Shown: positions 167-33,271 of the stretch, piece after piece
How positions within the stretch are numbered: position 1 is the first letter of the stretch
Layout of the letters: every line of letters begins with the position of its first letter
Origin: Alphaproteobacteria bacterium
GTDB taxonomy: Bacteria > Pseudomonadota > Alphaproteobacteria > Puniceispirillales > UBA1172
Assembly (NCBI GenBank): GCA_023259875.1
Contig: JALRFL010000082.1
Location: 1-33,271, forward strand
Direction of reading: 5' to 3'
Length of the DNA: 33,271 bases
Position numbers and translations under genes: made by a program
The notes under the pieces: model-generated
Databases searched by the model: none
Told to the model about the DNA's origin: nothing
Seen by the model: the letters and a program-made list of their open reading frames with translations, nothing else

Positions 167-856
167 ATGTCCGATGATGATGATATTATCTTGTCCGAGC
201 TAGATGATGATGAACTGGTTCAGCAGATGCATGATGACCTGTATGACGGGTTGCAAGAGGAAATCGTTGAAGGGGTAAATATCCTGCTGGAGCGGGGATG
301 GACACCTTATGATGTGTTGACCAAGGCACTGGTCGAGGGCATGACGATTGTCGGTATTGATTTCCGCGATGGTATTTTATTCGTCCCCGAAGTGTTAATG
401 GCTGCCAATGCGATGAAGGCGGGCATGGGGGTTCTGCGCCCTCTGCTGGCAGAAACAGGCGCGCCGCGCGTGGGCAAGGTCGTCATTGGTACAGTTAAAG
501 GCGATATTCATGATATCGGCAAAAATCTGGTTTCCATGATGATGGAAGGGGCTGGATTTGAGGTCATTGATATCGGTATCAATAACCCTGTTGAAAACTA
601 CATTGAGGCGCTTGAAAAACATAAACCTGATATTCTAGGAATGTCTGCGCTTTTGACCACGACCATGCCTTACATGAAGGTGGTGATTGACGCTTTGGTC
701 GAAAAAGGGATGCGCGATGATTATATCGTGCTTGTTGGCGGCGCCCCTTTGAATGAGGCGTTTGCTAATTCTATCGGTGCTGATGCTTATTGTCGTGATG
801 CCGCGGTTGCGGTGGAAACGGCAAAGGCAATGGTCGCATCCAAGCCCTCGGCCTAA
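167..856 (+). CDS. Corrinoid (cobalamin-binding) methyl-carrier protein of the MtmC/MtgC/MetH-B12-domain type, with an acidic N-terminal extension
   Basis: The 229 aa ORF contains the DxHxxG base-off/His-on motif (GDIHDIGKNLV) and the downstream SALLTTT and LVGGAP motifs of the B12-binding Rossmann domain. It is preceded by a helical cap region. There is a good SD (AAGGGGA) upstream. Confidence 0.9.
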   Translation: MSDDDDIILSELDDDELVQQMHDDLYDGLQEEIVEGVNILLERGWTPYDVLTKALVEGMTIVGIDFRDGILFVPEVLMAANAMKAGMGVLRPLLAETGAPRVGKVVIGTVKGDIHDIGKNLVSMMMEGAGFEVIDIGINNPVENYIEALEKHKPDILGMSALLTTTMPYMKVVIDALVEKGMRDDYIVLVGGAPLNEAFANSIGADAYCRDAAVAVETAKAMVASKPSA

Positions 857-862
857 CCCCTC

Positions 863-1177
863 GTGCCAGCAATAACTGTCATTTATTGGCGTGATATCCC
901 TGCACAGGTGGTAGCAGAGGAAGGTCGCGGTCGTAATCGTCGCCAAGCCAAGGTTGAATTGCCTCAGCGTTTTGCCATTGCGATTGACGCGGCGGCGATG
1001 CGCGATGGCGCGGATTCAACCGATGATTATTTGGCAGAATGGCGGAAATCCGACCCTATGCCTTGCGGCGATGATCTTCAGGCTGAGGCGAACGCCAAAG
1101 CGGATCAATTGGTGGAAGAATACCCCCAAAGCCGGATTGCCAAAATTGTTGAAGCAGGTGGTCTAGAAGCATCATAA
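863..1177 (+). CDS. Small conserved protein of unknown function. It resembles the family often auto-annotated as 'virulence factor' domain protein next to alphaproteobacterial metF genes.
   Basis: 104 aa ORF with a GTG start 6 nt after the upstream stop, packed inside the operon. My family assignment comes from recollection of the N-terminal pattern (TVIYWRDIPAQV...) and is not verified. The protein has no cofactor motif and one Cys. Confidence 0.55.
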   Translation: MPAITVIYWRDIPAQVVAEEGRGRNRRQAKVELPQRFAIAIDAAAMRDGADSTDDYLAEWRKSDPMPCGDDLQAEANAKADQLVEEYPQSRIAKIVEAGGLEAS

Positions 1178-1321
1178 GCCAGCACGGCCATTAAGATTGT
1201 CGGAAATAAGAGACTGTTAGCCGCCATCTGGCCATTATCAAACGGGAATCCTATCTATTACCCTAGGCATGGCTAATAGAGTCATACCTTCGCTTGTTTT
1301 ATCCATGTAAGGAGCCGGAAG

Positions 1322-2224
1322 ATGAGTATTTCAATAGATGCAATTGCCAAGGCAGGGAAAAATTGGTCTATTGAGGTGACCCCACCCGGTGCCGCCAAAA
1401 TTGAGAGCTTTTCAGATATTCTGGCTGAAAACACCACGGTGAATGTCACTTTTCTGCCGGGAACCGACCCTGTGGATACGGTCAATGTCGCTAAGCGTTT
1501 GCGTGATGACGGCATGAATCCTGTTCCCCATATTGCTGCGCGGTCAATCAAATCCAAAGCTCAACTTTCTGAACTGGTGGCGGATATGACTTCGCGCGCC
1601 AAGGTTGACGAAGTTTTGGTTATTGGCGGCGGTGTCACGCATCCGGTTGGTGATTTTTCCTCAAGCATGGAAATTCTTGAAACCGGAGTTCTGCAATCCG
1701 CAGGGATTCGCAAGATCGGCGTCTCTGGGCATCCTGAGGGAAGCCCAGATATCACTGATCCGCAACTGGCAGAGGCATTGGCATGGAAAAATGCCTTTGC
1801 TAAGCGTGAAGGCCTTGATCTCTATATCGAAACCCAATTCTGTTTTGATGCCGCCGCGGTGGTGGCGTGGGAAAATGCGATCCGTGAGGCTGGTAACGAG
1901 TTGCCCATTCGCATTGGTATTCCAGGCCCAGCCACAATTAAAACCCTGTTCCGTTTTGCCCAGATTTCGGGCATTGGCCCATCGATGCGGTTTATTGCCA
2001 AACAGGCTCGCAATGTTACCAAACTGCTTACCGTGCAATCACCCCATTTGCTGATCGCAGGCCTAGCCGAAGCCATGGCGAATGATGACAAGAGCAAATT
2101 ACATCATTTCCACTATTATCCTTTTGGCGGCGTTGCCAAAACCGCCATATGGGCATCAGAAGTCGCCGCAGGCAATATTACGCTTCTTCCAAAGGGAGGG
2201 TTTAGCGTGCCAACACCGAAATAA
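1322..2224 (+). CDS. metF: Methylenetetrahydrofolate reductase family protein (MetF-like)
   Basis: 300 aa, the usual MetF length, with a TIM-barrel-like pattern (SIEVTPP, VNVTFLPG, VLVIGGG, SGHPEGSP, IETQFCFD). There is a GGAG SD 5' of the ATG. The operon context includes a methyl-H4folate-forming methyltransferase. Confidence 0.85.
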   Translation: MSISIDAIAKAGKNWSIEVTPPGAAKIESFSDILAENTTVNVTFLPGTDPVDTVNVAKRLRDDGMNPVPHIAARSIKSKAQLSELVADMTSRAKVDEVLVIGGGVTHPVGDFSSSMEILETGVLQSAGIRKIGVSGHPEGSPDITDPQLAEALAWKNAFAKREGLDLYIETQFCFDAAAVVAWENAIREAGNELPIRIGIPGPATIKTLFRFAQISGIGPSMRFIAKQARNVTKLLTVQSPHLLIAGLAEAMANDDKSKLHHFHYYPFGGVAKTAIWASEVAAGNITLLPKGGFSVPTPK

Positions 2225-2344
2225 GCCAGATGAACGGTGATCGGTTGAAAAGCATATCAGGCAGGGACTTGAAAACCTTGGCTGCCAAGAAATATCAGTG
2301 TTAACAGAATACAAGCGAACTCACATCGAAAGAGGAGCCCAAAC

Positions 2345-3250
2345 ATGACCATTACCCGCGTGTCATCACACAAAAAAGAGATTGAGATTGGTTTTGAAAA
2401 GCCATTTTGCATTATTGGTGAACGAATTAATCCCACCGGCCGTAAACTGCTTGCCGCAGAAATGGCAGAGGGCGATTACACGCGCGTGTTGTCTGATGCG
2501 CTGGCTCAGGTTGAGGCAGGGGCAACTATGCTGGATGTGAACGCTGGCATCCCCATGGCTGATGAGCCAAAGATTCTGGCAGAATGTATCCAGTTGATTC
2601 AGGATCATGTTGATATTCCTCTGGCCATTGACAGCTCCATCGTTGAGGCGCTGGAATCAGGATTGTCTGTTTATAAGGGTAAGCCTTTGGTCAATTCGGT
2701 GACGGGTGAAGAAGAACGCCTTGAGGTGGTTTTGCCACTTGTGAAAAAATATAACGCCGCTGTTGTTGCTATCTCAAATGATGAAACTGGCATTTCCGAA
2801 GACCCTGATGTGCGTTATGAGGTGGCAAAGAAAATTGTTGAACGCGCCGAAGATTTTGGCATCCCACGCGAAGATGTGGTGGTTGATCCTTTGATCATGC
2901 CTGTGGGGGCAATTAATCTGGCTGGCCGTTCCGCGCTTGATCTGATTCGCCGCCTGCGGACAGAGCTCAAGGTTAACACCACTTGTGGGGCGTCTAATAT
3001 TTCCTTTGGTTTGCCAAACCGGCATGGCATGAATGCCGCTTTCTTGGCTATGGCTGTTGGGGCAGGCATGACCTCTGCCATTATGAATCCGCTTCATGCC
3101 GAAGAAATGTCAGGCATTATGGGCGCGGATGTTATGATGGGAACTGATCCAGAATGCCGCCGTTGGATTAAGAAATATCGTGAGCCTGTGGCCGAAGGCG
3201 AAGGTCGGGGGGCACGCGGTGATCGTGAACGCCGCCGCCGCAGGGCATAA
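2345..3250 (+). CDS. Methyltetrahydrofolate:corrinoid methyltransferase (pterin-binding, DHPS-like; MT2 component, related to the MetH pterin module, AcsE and MtgA)
   Basis: The 301 aa ORF carries motifs that parallel the MetH pterin-binding module: IIGERINPTGRK, MLDVNAG, LAIDSS, LVNSV, GASNISFG. There is an AGAGGAG SD. The C-terminus is Arg-rich (GRGARGDRERRRRRA). Confidence 0.88.
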   Translation: MTITRVSSHKKEIEIGFEKPFCIIGERINPTGRKLLAAEMAEGDYTRVLSDALAQVEAGATMLDVNAGIPMADEPKILAECIQLIQDHVDIPLAIDSSIVEALESGLSVYKGKPLVNSVTGEEERLEVVLPLVKKYNAAVVAISNDETGISEDPDVRYEVAKKIVERAEDFGIPREDVVVDPLIMPVGAINLAGRSALDLIRRLRTELKVNTTCGASNISFGLPNRHGMNAAFLAMAVGAGMTSAIMNPLHAEEMSGIMGADVMMGTDPECRRWIKKYREPVAEGEGRGARGDRERRRRRA

Positions 3251-3311
3251 CTTTTCACGGGTTACTGATTGGCATAGCTTACCATTGCGTTCAACCTAGA
3301 GATAAACGGAT

Positions 3312-5384
3312 ATGGCAAAACCTGAAAACGCCAAGAACAACAATAACGAAGCAAACGATACCCAAGCGAAGGATATTAAGGTTGTTTTCACCCCTTCTGG
3401 CAGACAAGGTCATGTGCCTGCCGGAACAACCGTGCTTCAAGCCGCGCGAAGCCTTGGCGTAGATATTGATTCGGTTTGTGGTGGCCGAGCCATGTGTGGG
3501 CGTTGTCAGGTCGTCGTGGGTGAAGGCGACTTTTCAAAACACGGTATCCGTTCATCGCAAGATTCTGTCTCACCCCGATCAAAAGTTGAAGATCGATATG
3601 CTGATAAACGCGGTCTCGCTAATGGTCGGCGGCTATCTTGCCAATCGACTTTGCTCAAAGATGCGGTGATAGATGTTCCTGCCACCTCACAGGTGCATGC
3701 TCAAGTGGTTCGTAAAGAAGCCGATACCAGAGTGATTGATGTCGATGCTATCACTCGGCTTTGTTATATTTCTGTTCGCGAACCGGATATGCATGAACCC
3801 TCAGGCGATTTGCGCCGTGTGGCCGAAGCACTCAAAGAACAATGGCCAGATCGTGTAGAAGGCCATATTACCGCTGACCTCCATGTTTTGCGCCAACTTC
3901 AAGTGGTGTTGCGCAAAGGAAAATGGGAAATCACCGTTGCCTTGCGTGACGGCACACGCATTATTGGGGTATGGCCGGGTCTTAAGGAACGCATTGTTGG
4001 CGCGGCGATTGATATTGGCTCAACCACCATGTCCGCGCATCTCTGTGATATGAATAGTGGTGAGGTGCTGGCCTCATCAGGGGCGATGAACCCACAAATC
4101 CGCTTCGGCGAAGATTTGATGAGTCGGGTGTCCTATGGCTTCCTTAACGCAGGCGGGGCAGAGGAAATGACCGCTTCGGTGCGCGAAGGGCTTCAACAGT
4201 TGCTTGATGGCGCAGCACAACAGGGCGGTATCAGCCAAGACGATATTATCGAGATTGTTCTGGTGGGCAATCCCGTGATGCATCATCTTGTGCTTGGTAT
4301 TGATCCTATTGAACTTGGTGGCGCGCCGTTTGCGCTTGCTATTGATCAGTCGTTTGAAACCATGGCGAGTGAACTTGACCTTAATGTCCATCCAGGGGCT
4401 CGGGTTTATGTTCTGCCTTGTATCGCTGGCCATGTTGGGGCGGATGCGGCGGCGGTGGCCTTGGCGGAACGCCCTGATGCGGCAGAGGCCATGACACTGG
4501 TGGTGGATGTGGGCACGAATGCGGAAATCATTTGCGGCAACAGCCAGCGTTTGCTGGCAGCGTCTTCCCCGACTGGCCCTGCTTTTGAAGGTGCTCAGAT
4601 CAGCAGTGGTCAACGCGCCGCGCCGGGGGCGATTGAACGCATTAAGATTGACCCTGAAACCCTTGAGCCTCGTTTCCGTGTGATTGGGGTGGATTTATGG
4701 TCTGACGACGAGGGGTTTGCGGATGCCATCGCTAGCACAGGCATTACCGGCATTTGTGGGTCTGGCATTATTGAGGTGCTGTCAGAGATGTATCTTTGCG
4801 GCATCATTTCTGAAGATGGGGTGGTGGATGGCAAGAAAGCCGCTATTTCGCCGCGCATCGAAGAAGACGGTCGTACCTTTCGCTATCGGGTTTCAGAAAC
4901 GGTGGCCATTACGCAGAATGATATTCGCGCGATCCAGCTTGCTAAGGCCGCGCTTTATGCTGGCTTCCGCTTATTGATGGATAAGCTGGAAATTGACCAT
5001 GTGGATCATGTCGTTTTGGCTGGGGCGTTTGGCACACATATTGAGCCAAAATACGCCATGGTTCTTGGCATGATTCCGGATTGTGAGATTGAAAATGTCC
5101 GCTCAGCTGGCAATTCCGCTGGTACAGGGGCGAGAATCTGCCTCTTGAACAAAGGCCAACGCCGCGAGGTTGAGGATATTGTCCGGCGGATTGAAAAGAT
5201 CGAAACCGCTGTTGAGCCATCGTTTCAAGATCACTTTGTAAAGGCCATGGCTATCCCCCATAAAACAGACCCTTACGCTAAACTGTCATCAGTGGTGAAA
5301 ATGCCGCCACGCCAGCTTGACGATCCTAGCGCCGTTGGTGCTGGAGGGGAAAGATCAGGCCGCCGTCGCCGCCGTCAACGCTAA
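3312..5384 (+). CDS. Corrinoid reductive activase (RACE/RamA-AcsV-like), made of an N-terminal plant-type [2Fe-2S] ferredoxin domain and an ASKHA ATPase domain
   Basis: The 690 aa ORF has a Cys cluster (CGGRAMCGRCQV ... LSCQS). It also has ASKHA phosphate and adenosine motifs: AIDIGSTTMSAH, VVDVGTNAEI, ITGICGSGIIE. The C-terminal tail is GERSGRRRRRQR. Confidence 0.85.
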   Translation: MAKPENAKNNNNEANDTQAKDIKVVFTPSGRQGHVPAGTTVLQAARSLGVDIDSVCGGRAMCGRCQVVVGEGDFSKHGIRSSQDSVSPRSKVEDRYADKRGLANGRRLSCQSTLLKDAVIDVPATSQVHAQVVRKEADTRVIDVDAITRLCYISVREPDMHEPSGDLRRVAEALKEQWPDRVEGHITADLHVLRQLQVVLRKGKWEITVALRDGTRIIGVWPGLKERIVGAAIDIGSTTMSAHLCDMNSGEVLASSGAMNPQIRFGEDLMSRVSYGFLNAGGAEEMTASVREGLQQLLDGAAQQGGISQDDIIEIVLVGNPVMHHLVLGIDPIELGGAPFALAIDQSFETMASELDLNVHPGARVYVLPCIAGHVGADAAAVALAERPDAAEAMTLVVDVGTNAEIICGNSQRLLAASSPTGPAFEGAQISSGQRAAPGAIERIKIDPETLEPRFRVIGVDLWSDDEGFADAIASTGITGICGSGIIEVLSEMYLCGIISEDGVVDGKKAAISPRIEEDGRTFRYRVSETVAITQNDIRAIQLAKAALYAGFRLLMDKLEIDHVDHVVLAGAFGTHIEPKYAMVLGMIPDCEIENVRSAGNSAGTGARICLLNKGQRREVEDIVRRIEKIETAVEPSFQDHFVKAMAIPHKTDPYAKLSSVVKMPPRQLDDPSAVGAGGERSGRRRRRQR

Positions 5385-23063: not shown

Positions 23064-25019
23064 ATGACCACAAGCGAAACACCAGATAAAGATCAACCCA
23101 TGCCCACACCCCTTCTGGATCAGATCAATACCCCTCAAGACATGAAGCATCTGTCAAAGCAGGAATTGCGGCAGTTAGCGGATGAATTGCGAGCTGAGAC
23201 CATTTCGGCGGTATCCCGTACGGGTGGGCATTTGGGCGCTGGGCTTGGGGTTGTTGAGCTGACGGTGGCTTTGCATCATGTTTTTGATACCCCTCATGAT
23301 CGCTTGATCTGGGATGTTGGGCATCAGGCCTATCCGCATAAGATTTTGACCGGACGGCGTGACCGGATACGCACCCTGCGCCAGCCAGGGGGATTGTCTG
23401 GTTTCACTAAGCGCGACGAATCCCCCTATGATCCTTTCGGGGCGGCGCATTCCTCCACCTCAATTTCAGCAGGATTAGGGATGGCGGTAGCTCGTGATCA
23501 TCTTGGCGGAAAAAATCATGTCATTTCGGTCATTGGCGATGGTGCTATGAGCGCTGGCATGGCCTATGAGGCGATGAATAACGCTGGTGATCTGAAAACA
23601 CGCATGATTGTTATCTTGAATGATAATGATATGTCGATTGCGCCTGCGGTTGGGGCTATGAGTTCGTATCTTAGCCAATTGATTTCTTCTGAACGCTTTC
23701 TTTCTATTCGCCATTTGGCCAAAAAGGTGGCAAAACGCTTCCCAGAAGAAGCCCAGCGTACCGCCAAACGCGCCGAAGAAATGGCACGCGGTTTGGTCGG
23801 TGGCAGCACGCTTTTTTCACAATTAGGGTTCTATTATTTAGGGCCGGTTGATGGTCATGATCTCAATCAACTGGTGCCAATCCTAAACAACCTGCGTGAC
23901 AATTCGCATGAAGGCCCTGTGTTGCTCCATGTTCGTACCGAAAAGGGGCGCGGTCACCCCTTTGGCAAAGAAAGTGGTGAGAAATATCACGCGGTGCCGC
24001 GTTTTGATCTGGTGGGTGAAAACGATAGTAAGCCCATAGGTAATCGCCCACCTAGTTACACCTCGGTGTTTGCCCAGCAACTGATAGCAGAAGCCGAACA
24101 GGATAAGCGGATTATTGGCATCACCGCCGCCATGCCATCAGGCACAGGCATGGATAAGTTTGCTGAGCGTTTCCCCGGGCGCAGTTATGATGTTGGTATT
24201 GCAGAACAGCACGCGGTCACCTTTGCCGCTGGGCTGGCCGCCGAAGGCTTAAAACCCTTTACCGCGATTTATTCCACCTTTCTTCAGCGCGGTTATGATC
24301 AGGTGGTGCATGATGTGGCCTTGCAAAAACTGCCTGTGCGCTTTGCCATTGATCGGGCAGGATTGGTTGGCGCGGATGGGGCTACTCATGTTGGGGCTTA
24401 TGATATGGCCTATCTGTCTGCCTTACCAAATATGGTGGTCATGGCCCCCTCGGATGAGGCAGAGTTAGCGGCGATGGTATCAACCGCCGCCGCCCTAGAT
24501 GATAGGCCGTCAGCGTTTCGCTATCCGCGCGGCGAAGGCACAGGCGTTCCTATCCCCGAACAGGTGTCTCCGCTAGAAATTGGGCGTGGGCGCATCTTGC
24601 GCGAAGGCAATAGCATTGCCCTGTTGTCTGTGGGAACAAGACTGGGGGATTGCCTCAAGGTTGCGGATCATCTTAAGGCGCATGGCATGACGATCACTGT
24701 GGCTGATGCTCGTTTTGTGAAACCTCTTGATCATGATCTGATCACGCGGCTTGCCACAGAGCATGACATGTTGGTGACGATTGAAGAAGGCAGTGTTGGC
24801 GGCTTTGGCTCACAAGTGGCGCAATTCCTAGCCAATCAAGGCCTCTTGGATCGGGGTTTGAAACTCCGCATGCTGACTTTGCCAGATGAAATGATTGATC
24901 ATAACACGCAAGAAGCACAGCTGGCACAAGCAGGTCTTGACGCGGCAGGGATCCTTGCCGCTATCTCCCCTTGTATTGACGACAAGACGGCCACAGCGGT
25001 GGCAGGGTGGCATGGCTAA
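23064..25019 (+). CDS. dxs: 1-deoxy-D-xylulose-5-phosphate synthase
   Basis: 651 aa with the ThDP motif [18 protein letters not shown], plus [16 protein letters not shown] and [15 protein letters not shown]. An alternative start at ATG 23100 is possible. Confidence 0.96.
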
Positions 25020-29202: not shown

Positions 29203-29338
29203 GTAAAGGCGGTTAACGCCCCCCTTAGCAATGGGGCCATTATTGACAGGATTATGTCGTTTGCCGGATGCTTTCCTGCTGTGATTTTTCTATAATGCGC
29301 CAGCAGTAAAAAAAGCTCGACACTTGGAGGTCAATATC

Positions 29339-31777
29339 ATGAATAGTCATGCGCGCGCAGTTGTTATTGGTGGTGGTGTGGTTGGGGTATCTATGCTTTA
29401 CCATCTTGCCAAAAAAGGCTGGACAGATTCTGTTTTGATCGAACGCAAAGAATTGACTTCTGGGTCAACATGGCACGCCGCGGGGCTATTGCCATTGTTC
29501 AATATGTCCTATTCCGTGGGGCAGGTGCATAAATATTCCGTGAAATTTTATCAGGAACTGGAACAAGAAACCGGCATGAATGTCGGTTTCCGCAAAGTGT
29601 CTAATGTCCGTCTTGCCAGCAAGGCTGATCGCTGGGATGAATATATGCAATACGCAGGCGTTGCGGATACTATTGGTATTGATGTCAGACGGCTGACCCC
29701 AGAACAGGTCAAAGAGGTTTGGCCTATGTGCAACACCGAAGGTTTGCTTGGTGCGATCCAGCACCCTGAAGATGGTTATATTCAGCCTGCTGATCTGACC
29801 CAAGCCATGGCTAAAGGCGCGCGTGACAGGGGGGCAACTATTCACCGTAATACCACGGTTCAGGCAATCAATCGCACCTCATCTGGCGAATGGGAAGTGG
29901 TAACAGACAAAGGCACCATCACTTGTGAACATGTGGTGTCTTGCACTGGCAATTTTGCGCGCAAAACCGGGGCGATGGTAGGATTAAACATCCCTGTTAT
30001 TCCGGTTGAGCATCAGTATATCGTCACCGAAGCTCACCCAGAGATCAAAGCGCGCCACGCTGATGGTTTGCCAGAAATGGGCGTGTTACGGGACAGTGAT
30101 AATGGCTGGTATATGCGCGAAGAAGCAGGGGGACTGATCCTTGGCCCTTATGAATATGGCGCTCCAGCTTGTTATGTGAAAGGCCCTAGTGAAGACAGCG
30201 AATATGAACTGTTCCAAGAAGATTTGGAACGGATCGAACAGCATATTGAAAGCGCGATGTTCCGCGTGCCTGCGTTTGGTGAGGTTGGCGTCAAGCGTGT
30301 CTATAACGGCGCGATTGCCTACACCCCTGATGGAAACCCTATTATTGGCCCTGCGCCGGGGTTGAAAAACTTCTGGCTTAGTGAGGGGCATTCCTTTGGG
30401 GTTACCGCCGCAGGTGGGGCAGGCTGGCAGTTAGCCGAATGGATCGTAGAAGGTGAGCCAACGATTGATATGACAGGTGTTGATCCACGCCGTTACGGCA
30501 ATTATGCCACCGAAAGCTACCTGATCGAAAAGAACGAAGAAGCCTATGCCAATGTCTTTACCATCCACTATCCTGATGAGGAGCGTGAAGGCGCAAGACC
30601 CTTGCGGACTGCGCCATGCTATGATCGCTTGAAAGCGCTAGGTGCGGTTTTTGGGGCAAAGTTTGGTTGGGAACGCGCCAACTGGTTCGCGCCTGAAGGC
30701 GTCGCCCAAGAAGACGATTGGTCATTCCGCCGCTCTCAGTGGTTCAAACATATTGGAAATGAGGTGCGCAACACGACAGAAAATGTTGGGCTTCTGGATA
30801 TGTCCGCTTTTGCCAAAGCGCGAGTTTCAGGCCCGGGAGCAGAGGCATTTCTTGATCGTTTGATCGCTAATCGTGTGCCTAAGAAAGTGGGCCGTGTGAA
30901 TCTCTGCCATGCCTTATCCCATGGCGGCGGCGTCCATTCGGAATACACCATTATTCGCGAATCGGATCAGAGTTTTTATGTGGTATCTGCAGGTGCGTTG
31001 CAGTCCGTTGACCATGACTGGATGCGCAAACATATGCCCGATGATGGCAGCGTACAGTTCACCAATATCACAAATGCGATGGGGGTTCTGATCGTAGCCG
31101 GGCCGAATTCTCGTAAATTGATGGAACGGGTCAGCCCACGCTTTGACTTTTCTAACGAAGCGTTTCCATGGCTCACATCACGCTGGATTGATGTTGGTCA
31201 TGCCCCATCACTTGCTGCGCGCGTGAATTATGTAGGCGAGCTTGGCTGGGAATTGCATCATCCTATCGAATATCAGAATCATATCTTTGATCATTTGATG
31301 GAAGCCGGTGCGGATCTGGGCATTAAGCCGTTTGGTATTAGGGCGATGGATTCCATGCGAATGGAAAAAAGCTATCGCATGATGGGAACGGAATTATCAA
31401 TCGAATATGCGGCGCTGGAATCCAAACTGGATCGCTTTGTGCATCTCAACAAAGGGGATTTCATTGGCCGTGATGCGCTGGTGAAATGGCAGGAAAAAGG
31501 TTTTGCCAATGAGCTGGTGACCATCAGAATTGATAACATTAAAGACGCGGATGTGATTGGCGGCAATCCGATTTACCATGATGGTAAGATGGTTGGCCGT
31601 GCCACTTCGGGCAATTATGGTTTCCGCGTGGAACAGTCGCTGGCAATGGGTATGGTGCCGCCAGCACTGGCAAATGTGGGAACCACATTTGAAATTGAAA
31701 TTCTGGGTGAGCGTTATCCGGCAGTGATTGTTGAAGAAAGCCCATTTGATCCGGACAATCTCAGATTAAGAGCCTAA
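29339..31777 (+). CDS. FAD-dependent dimethylglycine/sarcosine dehydrogenase family protein (DAO domain fused to a GcvT-type H4folate-binding aminomethyltransferase domain)
   Basis: Has a dinucleotide fold (AVVIGGGVVGVS) and the covalent-flavinylation His context SGSTWHAAGL, as in DMGDH/SARDH. The C-terminal GcvT-like domain makes 812 aa in total. I prefer ATG 29339 with a GGAGG SD 8 nt upstream over the TTG at 29324. Confidence 0.88.
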   Translation: MNSHARAVVIGGGVVGVSMLYHLAKKGWTDSVLIERKELTSGSTWHAAGLLPLFNMSYSVGQVHKYSVKFYQELEQETGMNVGFRKVSNVRLASKADRWDEYMQYAGVADTIGIDVRRLTPEQVKEVWPMCNTEGLLGAIQHPEDGYIQPADLTQAMAKGARDRGATIHRNTTVQAINRTSSGEWEVVTDKGTITCEHVVSCTGNFARKTGAMVGLNIPVIPVEHQYIVTEAHPEIKARHADGLPEMGVLRDSDNGWYMREEAGGLILGPYEYGAPACYVKGPSEDSEYELFQEDLERIEQHIESAMFRVPAFGEVGVKRVYNGAIAYTPDGNPIIGPAPGLKNFWLSEGHSFGVTAAGGAGWQLAEWIVEGEPTIDMTGVDPRRYGNYATESYLIEKNEEAYANVFTIHYPDEEREGARPLRTAPCYDRLKALGAVFGAKFGWERANWFAPEGVAQEDDWSFRRSQWFKHIGNEVRNTTENVGLLDMSAFAKARVSGPGAEAFLDRLIANRVPKKVGRVNLCHALSHGGGVHSEYTIIRESDQSFYVVSAGALQSVDHDWMRKHMPDDGSVQFTNITNAMGVLIVAGPNSRKLMERVSPRFDFSNEAFPWLTSRWIDVGHAPSLAARVNYVGELGWELHHPIEYQNHIFDHLMEAGADLGIKPFGIRAMDSMRMEKSYRMMGTELSIEYAALESKLDRFVHLNKGDFIGRDALVKWQEKGFANELVTIRIDNIKDADVIGGNPIYHDGKMVGRATSGNYGFRVEQSLAMGMVPPALANVGTTFEIEILGERYPAVIVEESPFDPDNLRLRA

Positions 31778-31811: not shown

Positions 31812-33271
31812 ATGTCTGAAGACGCATCGACTGAAAAACGCGGCCGCAGAGGTGGTGGGCGTGATGCTCGCCGGAGCGCACGAAGTGGCGGCGGCAACAA
31901 AATGTCTGCCCCTTATCTGATCCGTAAGGTGCCACTCTATGAGGTTCTGTCTGATGAAGGGGCAGAGATCATTGAGAACAACGCCGAAACCATCCTTGAA
32001 GAGATCGGGATTGAGTTCAAAGATGATCCTGAGGCACTTGAAATTCTCAAAGAACATGGGGCGGATGTGAAAGGCCAGCGTGTCCATTTTCCTCGCGGTC
32101 TTTGCCGTGAGTATTGCAAAAAGGCACCATCACAATTTACCCAATACGCGCGTAACCCTGACCGTTCCGTAGAAATTGGCGGAAATAACACCGTGTTTGC
32201 CCCTGTTTATGGGCCGCCATTTGTTCGTGATCTTGAAAATGAACGGCGTTATGCCACGATTGAAGATTTCCGGAATTTCATTAAACTGGCCTATATGTTG
32301 CCTGGTTTGCACCATTCGGGTGGCACGATCTGTGAGCCGGTAGATTTGCCTGTACCAAAACGCCATCTGGAAATGGTTTATAGCCATATCAAATATTCAG
32401 ATAAGCCTTTCATGGGTTCGGTGACCGCGGCAAGCCGCGCACAGGATACTGTGGAAATGGCCAAAATTGTATTTGGTGCAGATTTTCTTGATCAAAACAA
32501 TGTTCTGGTTAGCCTTATTAACGCCAATTCGCCTATGACATGGGACGATACCATGCTTGGTGCGCTAAAGGTATATGCGCGTCATGGTCAGGCGGTTATG
32601 CTGTCACCATTCATTCTGGCAGGGGCGATGTCTCCGGTATCTGTGGCTGGTACCTTAGCGCAAACCCTTGCCGAAGCGATGAGCGGCATTGCCTTTGCCC
32701 AGATGGTGAAGCCGGGTGCGCCAGTGATTTTTGGATCATTCGCCAGTTCGATGTCCATGCAAACAGGGGCGCCGACTTTTGGCACCCCTGAACCGGCATT
32801 GGTACTTAATGGTTGTGCTAAGCTGGCGCGGCGGTTGAATGTCCCGTTCCGTTCTGGCGGCTCTCTTACCGCGGCAAAAACGGTTGATGCGCAAGCCGCG
32901 TATGAATCCACCTACACGCTACTTCCTGCGGTGACCAGCGGCGTTAATTTTATGCTTCACGCCGCAGGCTGGATGGAAGGTGGACTAGTATCGGATTACC
33001 GCAAACTGGTGCTAGATGCCGATCAGTTGTCCATGATGCAACGCATGGTAGGCGGTATTGATCTGACTGAAAATGGACAGGCAATGGATGCCATCCGCGA
33101 AACTGGCCCCGGTCAGCACTTCTTAGGGTCAAGCCACACCCAAGCCAATTTCGAAGATGCCTTCTGGCGTTCTGAGCTTGCGGATTATACGACTTTTGAG
33201 CAATGGAGTTCAGAAGGCAGTATCGAAAGTGCAAAAAGGGCGGAAAATCGCGCTCGCAAAATGCTGACGCA
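31812..33271 (+). CDS. Trimethylamine methyltransferase (MttB) superfamily protein, non-pyrrolysine type. It is probably a quaternary-amine (glycine betaine-like):corrinoid methyltransferase (MT1). The 3' end is truncated by the window edge.
   Basis: I translated the frame by hand and it stays open for 486 codons from ATG 31812 to the window end, with no stop and no in-frame TAG. It is absent from the ORF track because it has no stop codon. The sequence (…LINANSPMTWDD…, GSFASSMSMQTGAPTFGTPEPAL, FMLHAAGWMEGGL, GPGQHFLG) matches my recollection of MttB-family conserved blocks. It starts 34 nt after the DMGDH-like gene. Confidence 0.85.
   Translation, partial: MSEDASTEKRGRRGGGRDARRSARSGGGNKMSAPYLIRKVPLYEVLSDEGAEIIENNAETILEEIGIEFKDDPEALEILKEHGADVKGQRVHFPRGLCREYCKKAPSQFTQYARNPDRSVEIGGNNTVFAPVYGPPFVRDLENERRYATIEDFRNFIKLAYMLPGLHHSGGTICEPVDLPVPKRHLEMVYSHIKYSDKPFMGSVTAASRAQDTVEMAKIVFGADFLDQNNVLVSLINANSPMTWDDTMLGALKVYARHGQAVMLSPFILAGAMSPVSVAGTLAQTLAEAMSGIAFAQMVKPGAPVIFGSFASSMSMQTGAPTFGTPEPALVLNGCAKLARRLNVPFRSGGSLTAAKTVDAQAAYESTYTLLPAVTSGVNFMLHAAGWMEGGLVSDYRKLVLDADQLSMMQRMVGGIDLTENGQAMDAIRETGPGQHFLGSSHTQANFEDAFWRSELADYTTFEQWSSEGSIESAKRAENRARKMLT

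Follow-up and report, generated by a model that had tools for sequence, protein, structure and literature searches.

In Phaeobacter inhibens and Ruegeria pomeroyi, a split methionine synthase, or MtgBCDE system, has been described through genetics, proteomics and distribution (Price et al. 2018, PMC5764234; Mausz et al. 2025, PMC12478193). In R. pomeroyi, both glycine-betaine demethylation and methionine synthesis are served by MtgC together with MtgD, hence the need for a hub, and the mtgC carriers named by Mausz et al. include SAR116 (PMC12478193). Homologous folds are found in the anaerobic systems of D. hafniense (MtgB/MtgC/MtgA), methanogens (MttB/MttC with RamA) and acetogens (MeTr/CFeSP/RACo). 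Their catalytic logic is also the same: Co(I) receives a methyl group from MT1 and gives it up to MT2, and Co(II) is repaired by an ATP-dependent activase.

An earlier note on the locus studied here pointed to charged terminal tails on the carrier and its partners as undescribed for corrinoid methyltransferase systems. This fits the searched literature: the papers defining the split MetH/MtgBCDE system do not mention them (PMC5764234, PMC12478193).

A split MetH/MtgBCD system in a SAR116-like window

The window, by which we mean the whole analysed stretch of 33,271 nucleotides, is SAR116/Puniceispirillaceae-like, and its cluster is the known aerobic-type split MetH/MtgBCD glycine-betaine methyltransferase system. 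The cap and B12-binding corrinoid protein MtgC, the pterin-binding MtgD (MT2), an MttB-family MT1 (MtgB), a RACo/RamA-like activase and MetF2 are all shared with P. inhibens and R. pomeroyi, making the window a member of that system (PMC5764234, PMC12478193); DUF1638 and MtgE are absent from it. The gene assignments proposed earlier were borne out by matches to Pfam and NCBIfam. The relevant genes are:

167..856, + strand: MtgC, corrinoid (B12) carrier with a cap domain and a Rossmann B12-binding domain (Pfam B12-binding_2, B12-binding)
863..1177, + strand: PF13769 ('Virulence_fact') small acidic protein, function unknown (Pfam match)
1322..2224, + strand: MetF2-like methylenetetrahydrofolate reductase homologue, a non-docking control (weak PF02219, 27.4 bits; cut-off 24)
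2345..3250, + strand: MtgD/MT2, methyltetrahydrofolate:corrinoid methyltransferase, a pterin-binding TIM barrel (Pfam Pterin_bind; NCBIfam PRK07535, 376 bits)
3312..5384, + strand: RACo/RamA-like reductive activase, ATP-dependent and acting on the corrinoid protein (Pfam, NCBIfam; PDB homologues 3ZYY and 4C1N)
29324..31777, + strand: dimethylglycine-dehydrogenase-like (DMGDH-like) FAD/GCV_T enzyme, a non-docking control (Pfam DAO, FAO_M, GCV_T, GCV_T_C)
31812..33269, + strand: MttB-superfamily (MtgB-like, non-pyrrolysine) MT1, truncated by the window end (Pfam MTTB, 729 bits)

MtgC carries DIHDIG at residue 113 (DxHxxG motif search), and its matches to the NCBIfam MtgC/MtbC-like models lie under the cut-offs of those models. 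The visible part of MttB comprises 486 codons, none an in-frame stop, and is 66% identical to S. meliloti 4YYC. This one small carrier, MtgC, needs visits in turn from several separate enzymes. Judged by sequence, every enzyme due to dock on it in this subfamily bears an Arg-rich terminal tail, and the charged tails look like an undescribed docking tag.

An acidic N-terminal handle on MtgC

167..223, + strand: acidic N-terminal extension of MtgC, approximately residues 1-19, MSDDDDIILSELDDDELVQ, upstream of the start of solved homologues; the proposed docking handle

MtgC has a computed net charge of -22 and a pI of 4.25. The N-terminus quoted previously, MSDDDDIILSELDDDELVQQMHDD, is present, with 11 Asp/Glu and no Lys/Arg in the first 24 residues. 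This acidic stretch does lie ahead of the recognisable cap, but over residues ~1-18 rather than the full 24 residues claimed: Pfam B12-binding_2 begins at residue 18, and the solved homologues at residues 19-20. The extension is missing from 1Y80, 4JGI, 7XCN and 3EZX, all of which start after the acidic stretch.

The acidic N-terminus is kept in loci L001-L080, S. meliloti, Azoarcus, L089 and L099. Alignment across loci showed that positions 3-6 exchange D and E and that IIL is invariant, giving a conserved handle in this subfamily with 8-10 Asp/Glu, zero Lys/Arg and hydrophobic residues in an invariant IIL/L pattern. The window and related loci supplied a background set of ~1,300 crude ORF-genes; N-termini that have no basic and at least 9 acidic residues among 24 were found in 27 of these ORFs, and 27/27 were MtgC. 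Shine-Dalgarno sequences precede the start codons of both MtgC (AGGGGAG, ATG 167) and MttB (GAGGGA, ATG 31812), and the N-terminal peptides of both proteins are conserved in other genomes. For MtgC as a monomer, the predicted model was too poor to use (pLDDT 54).

Arg-rich tails on the docking partners

3185..3247, + strand: C-terminal extension of MT2, residues 281-301, PVAEGEGRGARGDRERRRRRA, made up of a variable linker and then an Arg run, beyond the end of solved homologues
5328..5381, + strand: C-terminal tail of RACo, predicted flexible (low pLDDT), approximately residues 673-690, AVGAGGERSGRRRRRQR, after an ordered extension (652-672)
31812..31925, + strand: N-terminal extension of MttB, rich in Arg (residues 1-38, net charge +6), missing in D. 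hafniense MtgB

The quoted ends of MT2 (EGEGRGARGDRERRRRRA, 3194-3247) and RACo (GGERSGRRRRRQR) and the quoted start of MttB (MSEDASTEKRGRRGGGRDARRSARSGGGNK, from 31812) were all located; the 13 RACo residues, previously placed at 5349-5381, actually span 5343-5381. Solved MT2 homologues, with MeTr and 4O0Q as PDB matches, stop at approximately residue 280. The MT2 Arg run is found in nearly all of 80 loci, as well as in L089, L096, L099, L100 and L101. Some members have weaker or atypical tails, with just 4-5 Arg in the MT2 of S. meliloti and Paracoccus and 13 further residues beyond the Arg patch in that of Azoarcus, which counts against a docking role.

RACo consists of a 2Fe-2S ferredoxin domain, a linker, a middle domain and an ASKHA domain, and its AlphaFold2 model has a mean pLDDT of 92.6. 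Order is predicted up to approximately residue 672 and the Arg run is modelled at low confidence, with pLDDT values of 95 and 89 over residues 651-670 and of 57 and 47 over residues 671-690; solved RACo stops ~9 residues past position 651. The Arg tail was found in 19/26 RACo representatives with at least 40% identity and in 5/74 below 40%, and thus appears to mark a RACo subfamily boundary.

At the other end of the window, D. hafniense MtgB (2QNE, 9YCE) begins at approximately residue 39-40 of MttB and S. meliloti 4YYC retains the extension, part of which, from residue 13, is included in the Pfam MTTB profile. The pattern R..GGR.ARR is kept in 5/6 divergent MttB paralogues of tail-bearing organisms (37-66% identical to the MttB of the window), and the Arg-rich N-terminus is further found in L089, L101, Paracoccus and Terrarubrum.

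The homocysteine-binding MtgE is a fourth docking partner of the carrier, and the additional prediction that it should bear the same tail appears to hold at the sequence level. An ending of the form ..RERRxRR[GA] or ..RER(x)RRR[GA] was found in 120/120 Rhizobiaceae and 120/120 Paracoccaceae-type Rhodobacterales cluster representatives (240/240), and Terrarubrum MtgE has the same Arg-rich ending. The C-terminus is often R-E-R-R-x-R-R-[AG]-stop on MtgD, RACo and MtgE alike.

The enzyme cores are themselves acidic (MT2 -12, RACo -22, MttB -13), which would allow each tail to fold back on its own enzyme, a point against docking. They might act within or between copies of that enzyme, in fold-back, oligomer stability, solubility or active-site gating, with the acidic tip of the carrier contacting basic patches on the enzyme cores and no tail-to-tail contact; MttB and MeTr homologues are indeed oligomeric, for example the MtgB dimer (PMC13080624). 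We consider this quite unlikely, given that the same device would be needed independently in 4-5 non-homologous folds, only in the subfamily with the acidic handle, and that the RERRxRR[AG] ending common to MtgE, MT2 and RACo suggests a single receptor.

Tail-less pathway proteins and background frequency

In the same background set, at least 4 Arg among the last 8 residues were found in 58/65 MT2 and 59/68 RACo sequences, compared to 11/1074 other ORFs, several of which were spurious ORFs or MtgE. Arg-rich ends thus have a background frequency of ~1% and seldom occur on unrelated proteins in these genomes, a point on which the earlier note had urged caution because of basic tails on other proteins in the window. 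Those of the Suv3-like helicase and the S4 protein are mixed K/R tails with no poly-Arg runs. Such mixed tails are typical of nucleic-acid binders. The charged-tail observation is confirmed as real and well beyond chance.

As had been claimed, MetF and the DMGDH-like enzyme have no such tails. The termini of the window's MetF2 are without them and 0/47 MetF2 orthologues have an Arg-rich end; none was seen on inspecting the termini of the DMGDH-like enzyme, which performs the next demethylation step, or of DUF1638. The internal GRGRNRRQAK patch of the PF13769 protein, previously listed alongside the tails, is a conserved internal loop, so the pattern should, on sequence grounds, exclude this protein.

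Disordered tails rich in Arg are well known for binding nucleic acids (RNA and DNA), polyphosphate and acidic lipids. The tails might accordingly target another polyanion (the nucleoid or RNA, polyphosphate, or acidic lipids of the membrane) and co-localise the pathway enzymes, perhaps in a condensate or near a betaine transporter, with the acidic N-terminus of MtgC serving a different purpose, cap dynamics for instance. The predicted flexibility of the RACo tail and the basic tails of the nucleic-acid-binding proteins in the window are consistent with this, and a feature common to all pathway enzymes would still be explained. Yet three proteins of this same pathway, MetF2, DMGDH and DUF1638, are tail-less, so the tail tracks carrier docking rather than pathway membership, and among the features found only the MtgC handle is conserved, complementary and restricted to the subfamily to an equal degree. 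We therefore regard another polyanion as unlikely.

A receptor other than MtgC could also be an accessory protein, either DUF1638, which has the same phylogenetic distribution as the RamA-like protein and is genetically required together with it (PMC5764234), or PF13769, an acidic protein (pI 4.6). Both accompany tail-bearing systems, but neither is universal (PF13769 in 56/63 and DUF1638 in 34/63 clusters). DUF1638 is absent from the window and from the clusters of its closest relatives, where the tails are still present, and the Paracoccus, L089 and L099 clusters have no PF13769 (cluster regions only), making an accessory receptor very unlikely.

Conservation and co-occurrence of the tails

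Conservation of the tails extends over Alpha-, Beta- and Gammaproteobacteria as well as deep metagenomic lineages, and reaches RACo identities as low as ~42%. The 80 loci span Puniceispirillales, Thalassobaculaceae, Rhodospirillales, Labrys and the gammaproteobacterial Arenicellales, and the same pattern is present in S. meliloti, the betaproteobacterium Azoarcus, L089 and L099, and more weakly in Paracoccus and Pseudorhodobacter. Conservation in orthologous systems, on which the earlier proposal depended, is thereby supported. In the comparison with anaerobic homologues, none of the four terminal extensions is present in the solved members.

Every complete MT2 and RACo copy in the 80 genomes has an Arg run at its end. 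The linkers before these runs differ among loci and the runs stay, and the Arg codons vary synonymously, matching genomic proportions; selection on the tails therefore acts at the protein level, as the exchange of D and E at MtgC positions 3-6 also indicates. In genomes of 30-38% GC the tails retain Arg, not Lys. Low-complexity termini can drift, and a single ancestor is possible for all tail-bearing systems, so the tails might be functionless neutral linker leftovers or a lineage compositional quirk. This reading is already disfavoured, and we consider it highly improbable: the tails persist to ~42% identity next to linkers that vary freely, their Arg codons are replaced synonymously, AT-rich genomes keep Arg as well, and the background is low.

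Tail-bearing RACo is accompanied by tail-bearing partners in L089, L096, L099, L100, L101, the window clade, S. meliloti, Azoarcus and Paracoccus. In the contexts of tail-less RACo (L092, L093, L094 and L102), the corrinoid proteins, MT2, URO-D methyltransferases and S-methyltransferase are also tail-less. The tails are thus present together and absent together, but the covariation that had also been anticipated was not seen in tail strength within the clade (Spearman 0.1 and 0.0), where both features are saturated and no quantitative covariation is measurable. The tail-bearing systems probably form one clade, so the perfect 9-versus-5 co-occurrence counts lineages, not independent evolutionary events, and may partly be co-inheritance.

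A putative exchangeable docking tag

Electrostatic docking onto the acidic handle of MtgC is, we infer, the best reading of the tails, with roughly an even chance of being correct. The Arg tails would bind this handle, or the generally acidic surface of MtgC, as a common, exchangeable electrostatic tag. Such a tag could offset the repulsion among all-acidic proteins (MtgC -22, RACo core -22, MT2 core -12) and raise the local partner concentration, and competition of the partners for one handle would pass the carrier from enzyme to enzyme. If true, this would amount to physical tethering or fly-casting of the partners on MtgC.

Fused MetH has the same domains, with the C-terminus of the folate domain adjoining the N-terminus of the cap; the MT2-like and MtgC-like segments of MetH chains are ~20 residues apart (in 9SSP, end 656 and start 676). 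The join in MetH is covalent, whereas the corresponding free ends in the split system are oppositely charged, so the tails may stand in for the linker without a bond. The linker of a MetH encoded beside a related cluster (L052) is neither acidic nor Arg-rich.

In polyketide and non-ribosomal peptide synthases, COM/docking domains, short complementary C- and N-terminal peptides, keep separate modules together non-covalently and partly by electrostatics. These are defined helical structures serving one fixed pair, whereas here many partners would share one handle; they have no sequence relationship to the tails of the MtgC system, which are known here from sequence. The sharing of one short acidic terminal peptide by many alternating partners, with electrostatic, competitive hand-off, resembles the C-terminal tip of SSB and the acidic tails of T7 gp2.5 and gp4, which compete for basic patches on T7 DNA polymerase. 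The partners of these hubs use folded basic pockets rather than Arg-rich tails, and the biology is that of DNA replication.

Gene content of the window

The gene cluster in the window is the known split methionine synthase/MtgBCD glycine-betaine system (PMC5764234, PMC12478193), which constitutes a major route for glycine-betaine demethylation and methionine synthesis in abundant marine bacteria (2025 PNAS, PMC12478193). It encodes a stand-alone corrinoid protein with a cap and a Rossmann domain containing DxHxxG (MtgC), a separate methyltetrahydrofolate:corrinoid methyltransferase (MT2, MtgD), a non-pyrrolysine MttB-superfamily MT1 (486 codons without an in-frame stop, scoring below threshold for the pyrrolysine MttB model) and a RamA/RACo-like reductive activase (2Fe-2S and ASKHA, from domain matches and a confident model).

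Features of the window (coordinates, strand, description)
within 167–5384, +, MtgC corrinoid protein; B12-binding_2 (PF02607) and B12-binding (PF02310), DIHDIG at residue 113
863–1177, +, small PF13769 protein; Pfam match
1322–2224, +, MTHFR-like protein (MetF2); 300 residues, 27.4 bits against a Pfam cut-off of 24
within 167–5384, +, pterin-binding methyltransferase MT2/MtgD; PF00809, NCBIfam PRK07535 376 bits (cut-off 259)
3312–5384, +, RACo/RamA-like activase; Fer2, RACo_linker, Raco_middle and RACo_C_ter (ASKHA), 3ZYY match E = 4e-84
29324–31777, DMGDH-like enzyme
from 31812, truncated by the window end, MttB-family methyltransferase; PF06253 729 bits, 486 visible codons
remaining genes, housekeeping; ccm operon, aconitase, Suv3-like helicase, S4 protein, CarD, DXS and others

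The window is similar to SAR116/Puniceispirillaceae genomes: its MtgC is 88–95% identical to corrinoid proteins labelled Puniceispirillaceae by their sources. In addition, the adjoining DMGDH-like gene fits glycine betaine as the putative substrate of MttB. [quoted passage not shown] No MtgE was found within the 33-kb window; in marine taxa, mtgE is usually not co-located (PMC12478193). A tblastn search of the 33-kb window gave no match to DUF1638, which is genetically required alongside the RamA-like activase in P. inhibens (PMC5764234) and may be encoded elsewhere in the source genome. No RNA family, riboswitches included, was found in the window by an Rfam scan. The FtsJ/S4 (TlyA-like) methyltransferase, taken as its longest ORF, shares ~125 nt (24895–25019) with the end of the DXS gene, its TTG start probably being called too far upstream.

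Charged termini as extensions of known folds

The earlier note had claimed that an acidic N-terminus on MtgC is matched by Arg-rich ends on its docking partners, C-terminal on MT2 and RACo and N-terminal on MttB. The termini that it quoted are exact in the window translation, with two corrections of extent: the RACo tail spans 5343–5381 instead of 5349–5381, and only the first ~18 residues of MtgC lie before the cap. Shine-Dalgarno sequences precede both N-terminal start codons (MtgC and MttB). The GRGRNRRQAK patch of the PF13769 protein, which the note had also listed, is an internal loop rather than a tail, and was dropped from the pattern.

Comparison with anaerobic homologues, which the note had suggested as a check, revealed that all four features are extensions relative to solved structures. 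The RACo structure 3ZYY ends ~9 residues past window residue 651, the window protein being 39 residues longer; MeTr and 4O0Q end at ~residue 280 of MT2, which is 21 residues longer. The corrinoid proteins 1Y80, 4JGI, 7XCN and 3EZX start at window residue 19–20, and D. hafniense MtgB starts at ~window residue 39 of MttB, while S. meliloti 4YYC retains the Arg-rich N-terminus. The solved components of the anaerobic MtgABC or MeTr-CFeSP-RACo type are tail-less (1Y80, 4JGI, 2YCI, 1F6Y, 4O0Q, 3ZYY, 2QNE and 9YCE), whereas the window proteins bear extensions of 17–39 residues.

The view that the tails are not Tat signals is borne out by their position and the missing h-region: three of them are C-terminal, and the SGGGNKMSAPYLIRKVPLYEVLSDEG that follows the MttB N-terminus aligns to the start of a cytosolic TIM-barrel enzyme. 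The RACo model (mean pLDDT 92.6) is ordered to ~residue 672, with low confidence in the Gly/Ala linker and Arg run, which in the model fits a flexible tether. For MtgC, AlphaFold2 had only a shallow alignment (at least 88% identity) and returned a mean pLDDT of 54, unusable for the N-terminus. Net charges are –22 for MtgC (half of it in residues 1–24), –22 for the RACo core and –12 for the MT2 core. The RACo N-terminus (3312–3380) carries a separate Asn/Lys-rich extension, MAKPENAKNNNNEANDTQAK, of low model confidence and of varying length among relatives.

Conservation and background frequency

A genome scan with MT2 yielded 80 loci, which range from Puniceispirillales to Labrys and the gammaproteobacterial Arenicellales. 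An Arg run ends every complete MT2 and RACo copy in this set, following a variable linker, and the MtgC start M[SA]DEDDIIL.ELDDDELVQQMHDDLYDGL is kept throughout. The same pattern of charged ends occurs in S. meliloti and Azoarcus, and is weaker in Paracoccus and Pseudorhodobacter. At MtgC positions 3–6, Asp and Glu interchange while IIL is invariant, and the Arg codons of the tails vary synonymously, at genomic proportions. An origin of the tails in neutral drift is contradicted by this conservation; as read from the alignments, they are under selection at the protein level. A DNA-level repeat or terminator artefact was ruled out by the synonymous codon variation together with the finding of no terminator-like site at the tail-coding DNA.

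Poly-Arg ends are rare in unrelated proteins: four or more of the last 8 residues are Arg in 58/65 MT2 and 59/68 RACo sequences, compared with 11/1074 other ORFs. All ORFs that combine 9 or more acidic with 0 basic residues among the first 24 are MtgC (27/27). The corresponding background for Arg-rich N-termini was unusable, since longest-ORF starts in high-GC DNA yield false ones. Across 58 loci, the acidic count of MtgC and the Arg count of the tails gave rho values of 0.1 and 0.0, there being no variance to correlate.

The tail residues are still mostly Arg in L097, a locus of 30% GC. More generally, the tails in three loci of 30–38% GC (L096, L097 and L100) are mainly Arg rather than Lys despite the AT-rich genomes, which suggests that guanidinium groups are required beyond positive charge.

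Co-occurrence of the charged termini

To delimit the tail-bearing subfamily, RACo homologues were searched with one representative per 50%-identity cluster, and full-length representatives were scored for Arg tails. Tails were present in 19/26 representatives with at least 40% identity and in 5/74 below 40%. Among loci with a tail-bearing RACo, L089 encodes an acidic MtgC, an MT2 ending in ..RRRGGRRRRA and an MttB starting with MARERRRGGRSRR; L099 encodes an acidic MtgC, with MT2 and RACo tailed; and MT2 and RACo are both tailed in L096 and L100 (38% GC) and in L101, as is MttB in L101. Where RACo is tail-less, the corrinoid proteins of L092 and L102 lack the acidic extension and their URO-D methyltransferases are likewise tail-less, L093 has a tail-less MT2 and corrinoid protein, and L094 a tail-less S-methyltransferase. 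The proposed co-occurrence thus holds, with tailed partners in 9/9 tail-bearing vs 0/5 tail-less RACo contexts, counted as lineages (Fisher's exact test by hand calculation, p ~5e-4, a figure that does not count independent events because the tail-bearing lineages probably form a single clade).

Two further observations concern the tail-bearing loci. In Thalassobaculaceae (L052–L055), fully Arg-tailed MT2 and RACo lie near a classical fused MetH, with no separate MtgC within 10 kb. Two distant lineages have an inserted gene of the glutathione-dependent formaldehyde-activating enzyme (GFA) family that separates MT2 from RACo (L089, 9579–9983; L101, 1906–2319).

Termini of other docking and non-docking proteins

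If the tail marks carrier-docking enzymes, the homocysteine-binding MtgE is expected to carry one, a prediction that could have failed. S. meliloti MtgE (annotated bmt) ends in ..PARERRRRA, and its counterparts in Shinella, Terrarubrum and Pseudorhodobacter in ..ARERSRRRG, ..ARRGARRRGTT and ..KRERRGRRG, respectively. Four or more of the last 10 residues were Arg in 120/120 Rhizobiaceae and 120/120 Paracoccaceae-type representatives, in each case among the best 120 matches listed. Neither a SAR116 MtgE nor a distant MtgC appeared among the best 120 matches listed, which were full of near-identical relatives. The R-E-R-R-x-R-R-[AG] ending also occurs on MT2 (SAR116, RERRRRRA) and RACo (Labrys, RERRRRRG), and the N-terminal R..GGR.ARR is kept in 5/6 divergent MttB paralogues, taken from P. 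inhibens, C. sphaeroides, Leisingera, Mesorhizobium and S. meliloti pSymA.

MetF2, the DMGDH-like enzyme and DUF1638 belong to the pathway without docking on the carrier. None of them has a tail, as the earlier note had stated for the first two. At the level of sequence, the tails track carrier docking and are restricted to this subfamily. Binding of the tails to another polyanion is possible, and would leave the tail-free MetF2 and DMGDH unexplained. The tails might also be self-directed, acting on their own enzyme; the same device must then have arisen on four or five unrelated folds, and only with a handle-bearing carrier.

A 46%-identical MtgE-like protein on the P. denitrificans chromid (L087) ends in ..AEVMGPGE, with no Arg tail. 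If this protein is a homocysteine methyltransferase that works without the carrier, as it may be, the tail would distinguish the two kinds. When metagenome DNA was scanned for RERRxRR[AG]-stop, nearly all of the 120 matches proved to be spurious out-of-frame hits in high-GC sequence. Three credible long proteins were left, a suggestive result but too small for a census: one MtgE, one MT2 and one unrelated-looking 337-residue protein ending in ..RRERRSRRA (L182, 522–1535, – strand), the sole credible non-Mtg motif carrier in this small sample.

Proposed docking mechanism

The system is already known, and the tails are a well-supported feature of its sequences. Consistent with the claim that they are undescribed, they go unmentioned in the system-defining papers, and literature searches on Arg-rich tails of corrinoid systems turned up no mention of them either. 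We infer that the Arg tails would serve as a common docking tag, competing to bind the acidic N-terminal handle of MtgC, and could counter repulsion among proteins that are all acidic overall. This mechanism is plausible and testable, but unproven. A single MetH chain carries the MT2-like and MtgC-like segments ~20 residues apart, so the oppositely charged ends are the ends that MetH covalently joins.

More tentatively, and with the balance somewhat against it, the tails could form a modular address code, in which a short linear motif (C-terminal R-E-R-R-x-R-R-[AG] or N-terminal R..GGR.ARR) marks the clients of one corrinoid hub and the acidic N-terminal peptide of MtgC is their common receptor. 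Such a code would stand in for the covalent linkers of MetH and, since several partners are oligomeric, could even drive dynamic multi-enzyme assembly. Many methyl-donor enzymes could then plug into one carrier, and further clients would be predictable from sequence alone. The docking (COM) domains of PKS/NRPS, complementary helical peptides on consecutive modules, are similar by analogy, with no sequence relationship to the Mtg tails.

The question bears on how one small B12 carrier, whose Co(I) is easily lost, is efficiently shared by at least 4 separate enzymes. A conserved docking tag, readable from sequence, would show how a fused multidomain MetH can function as separate parts, help to locate other enzymes using the MtgC carrier, and serve as a simple metagenome marker of this subfamily vs anaerobic systems. 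It would also offer a concrete mechanism open to genetic tests in existing models, of which S. meliloti is a tractable one. For R. pomeroyi DSS-3, where MtgD is SPO1863, RamA SPO2041 and MtgE SPO1884, mutants of both mtgC and mtgD are available together with their complementation (PMC12478193).

Accessory genes of the cluster

DUF1638 is missing from the window (856–1322) and likewise from the clusters most closely related to that of the window (L001–L016, compared with L017–L051). Its gene directly follows mtgC in S. meliloti, Azoarcus, L089, L099 and other SAR116 loci than these. It occurs in 34/63 related clusters. The PF13769 "virulence factor" protein (863–1177) is a near-constant companion (56/63), with an invariant YWRDIPAQV start; its loop reads GRGR[KNQ]R.QAK in SAR116 versions vs GR..AKRE in other lineages. 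That either protein, rather than MtgC, receives the tails is very improbable, as neither is universal in the clusters and the window is without DUF1638.

There seem to be two arrangements of MetF2. The window encodes a short MTHFR-like protein without a partner (1322–2224), whereas in L081, L082, L089 and L099 a longer MTHFR comes after an MTHFR C-terminal-domain (DUF5981/PF12225) protein.
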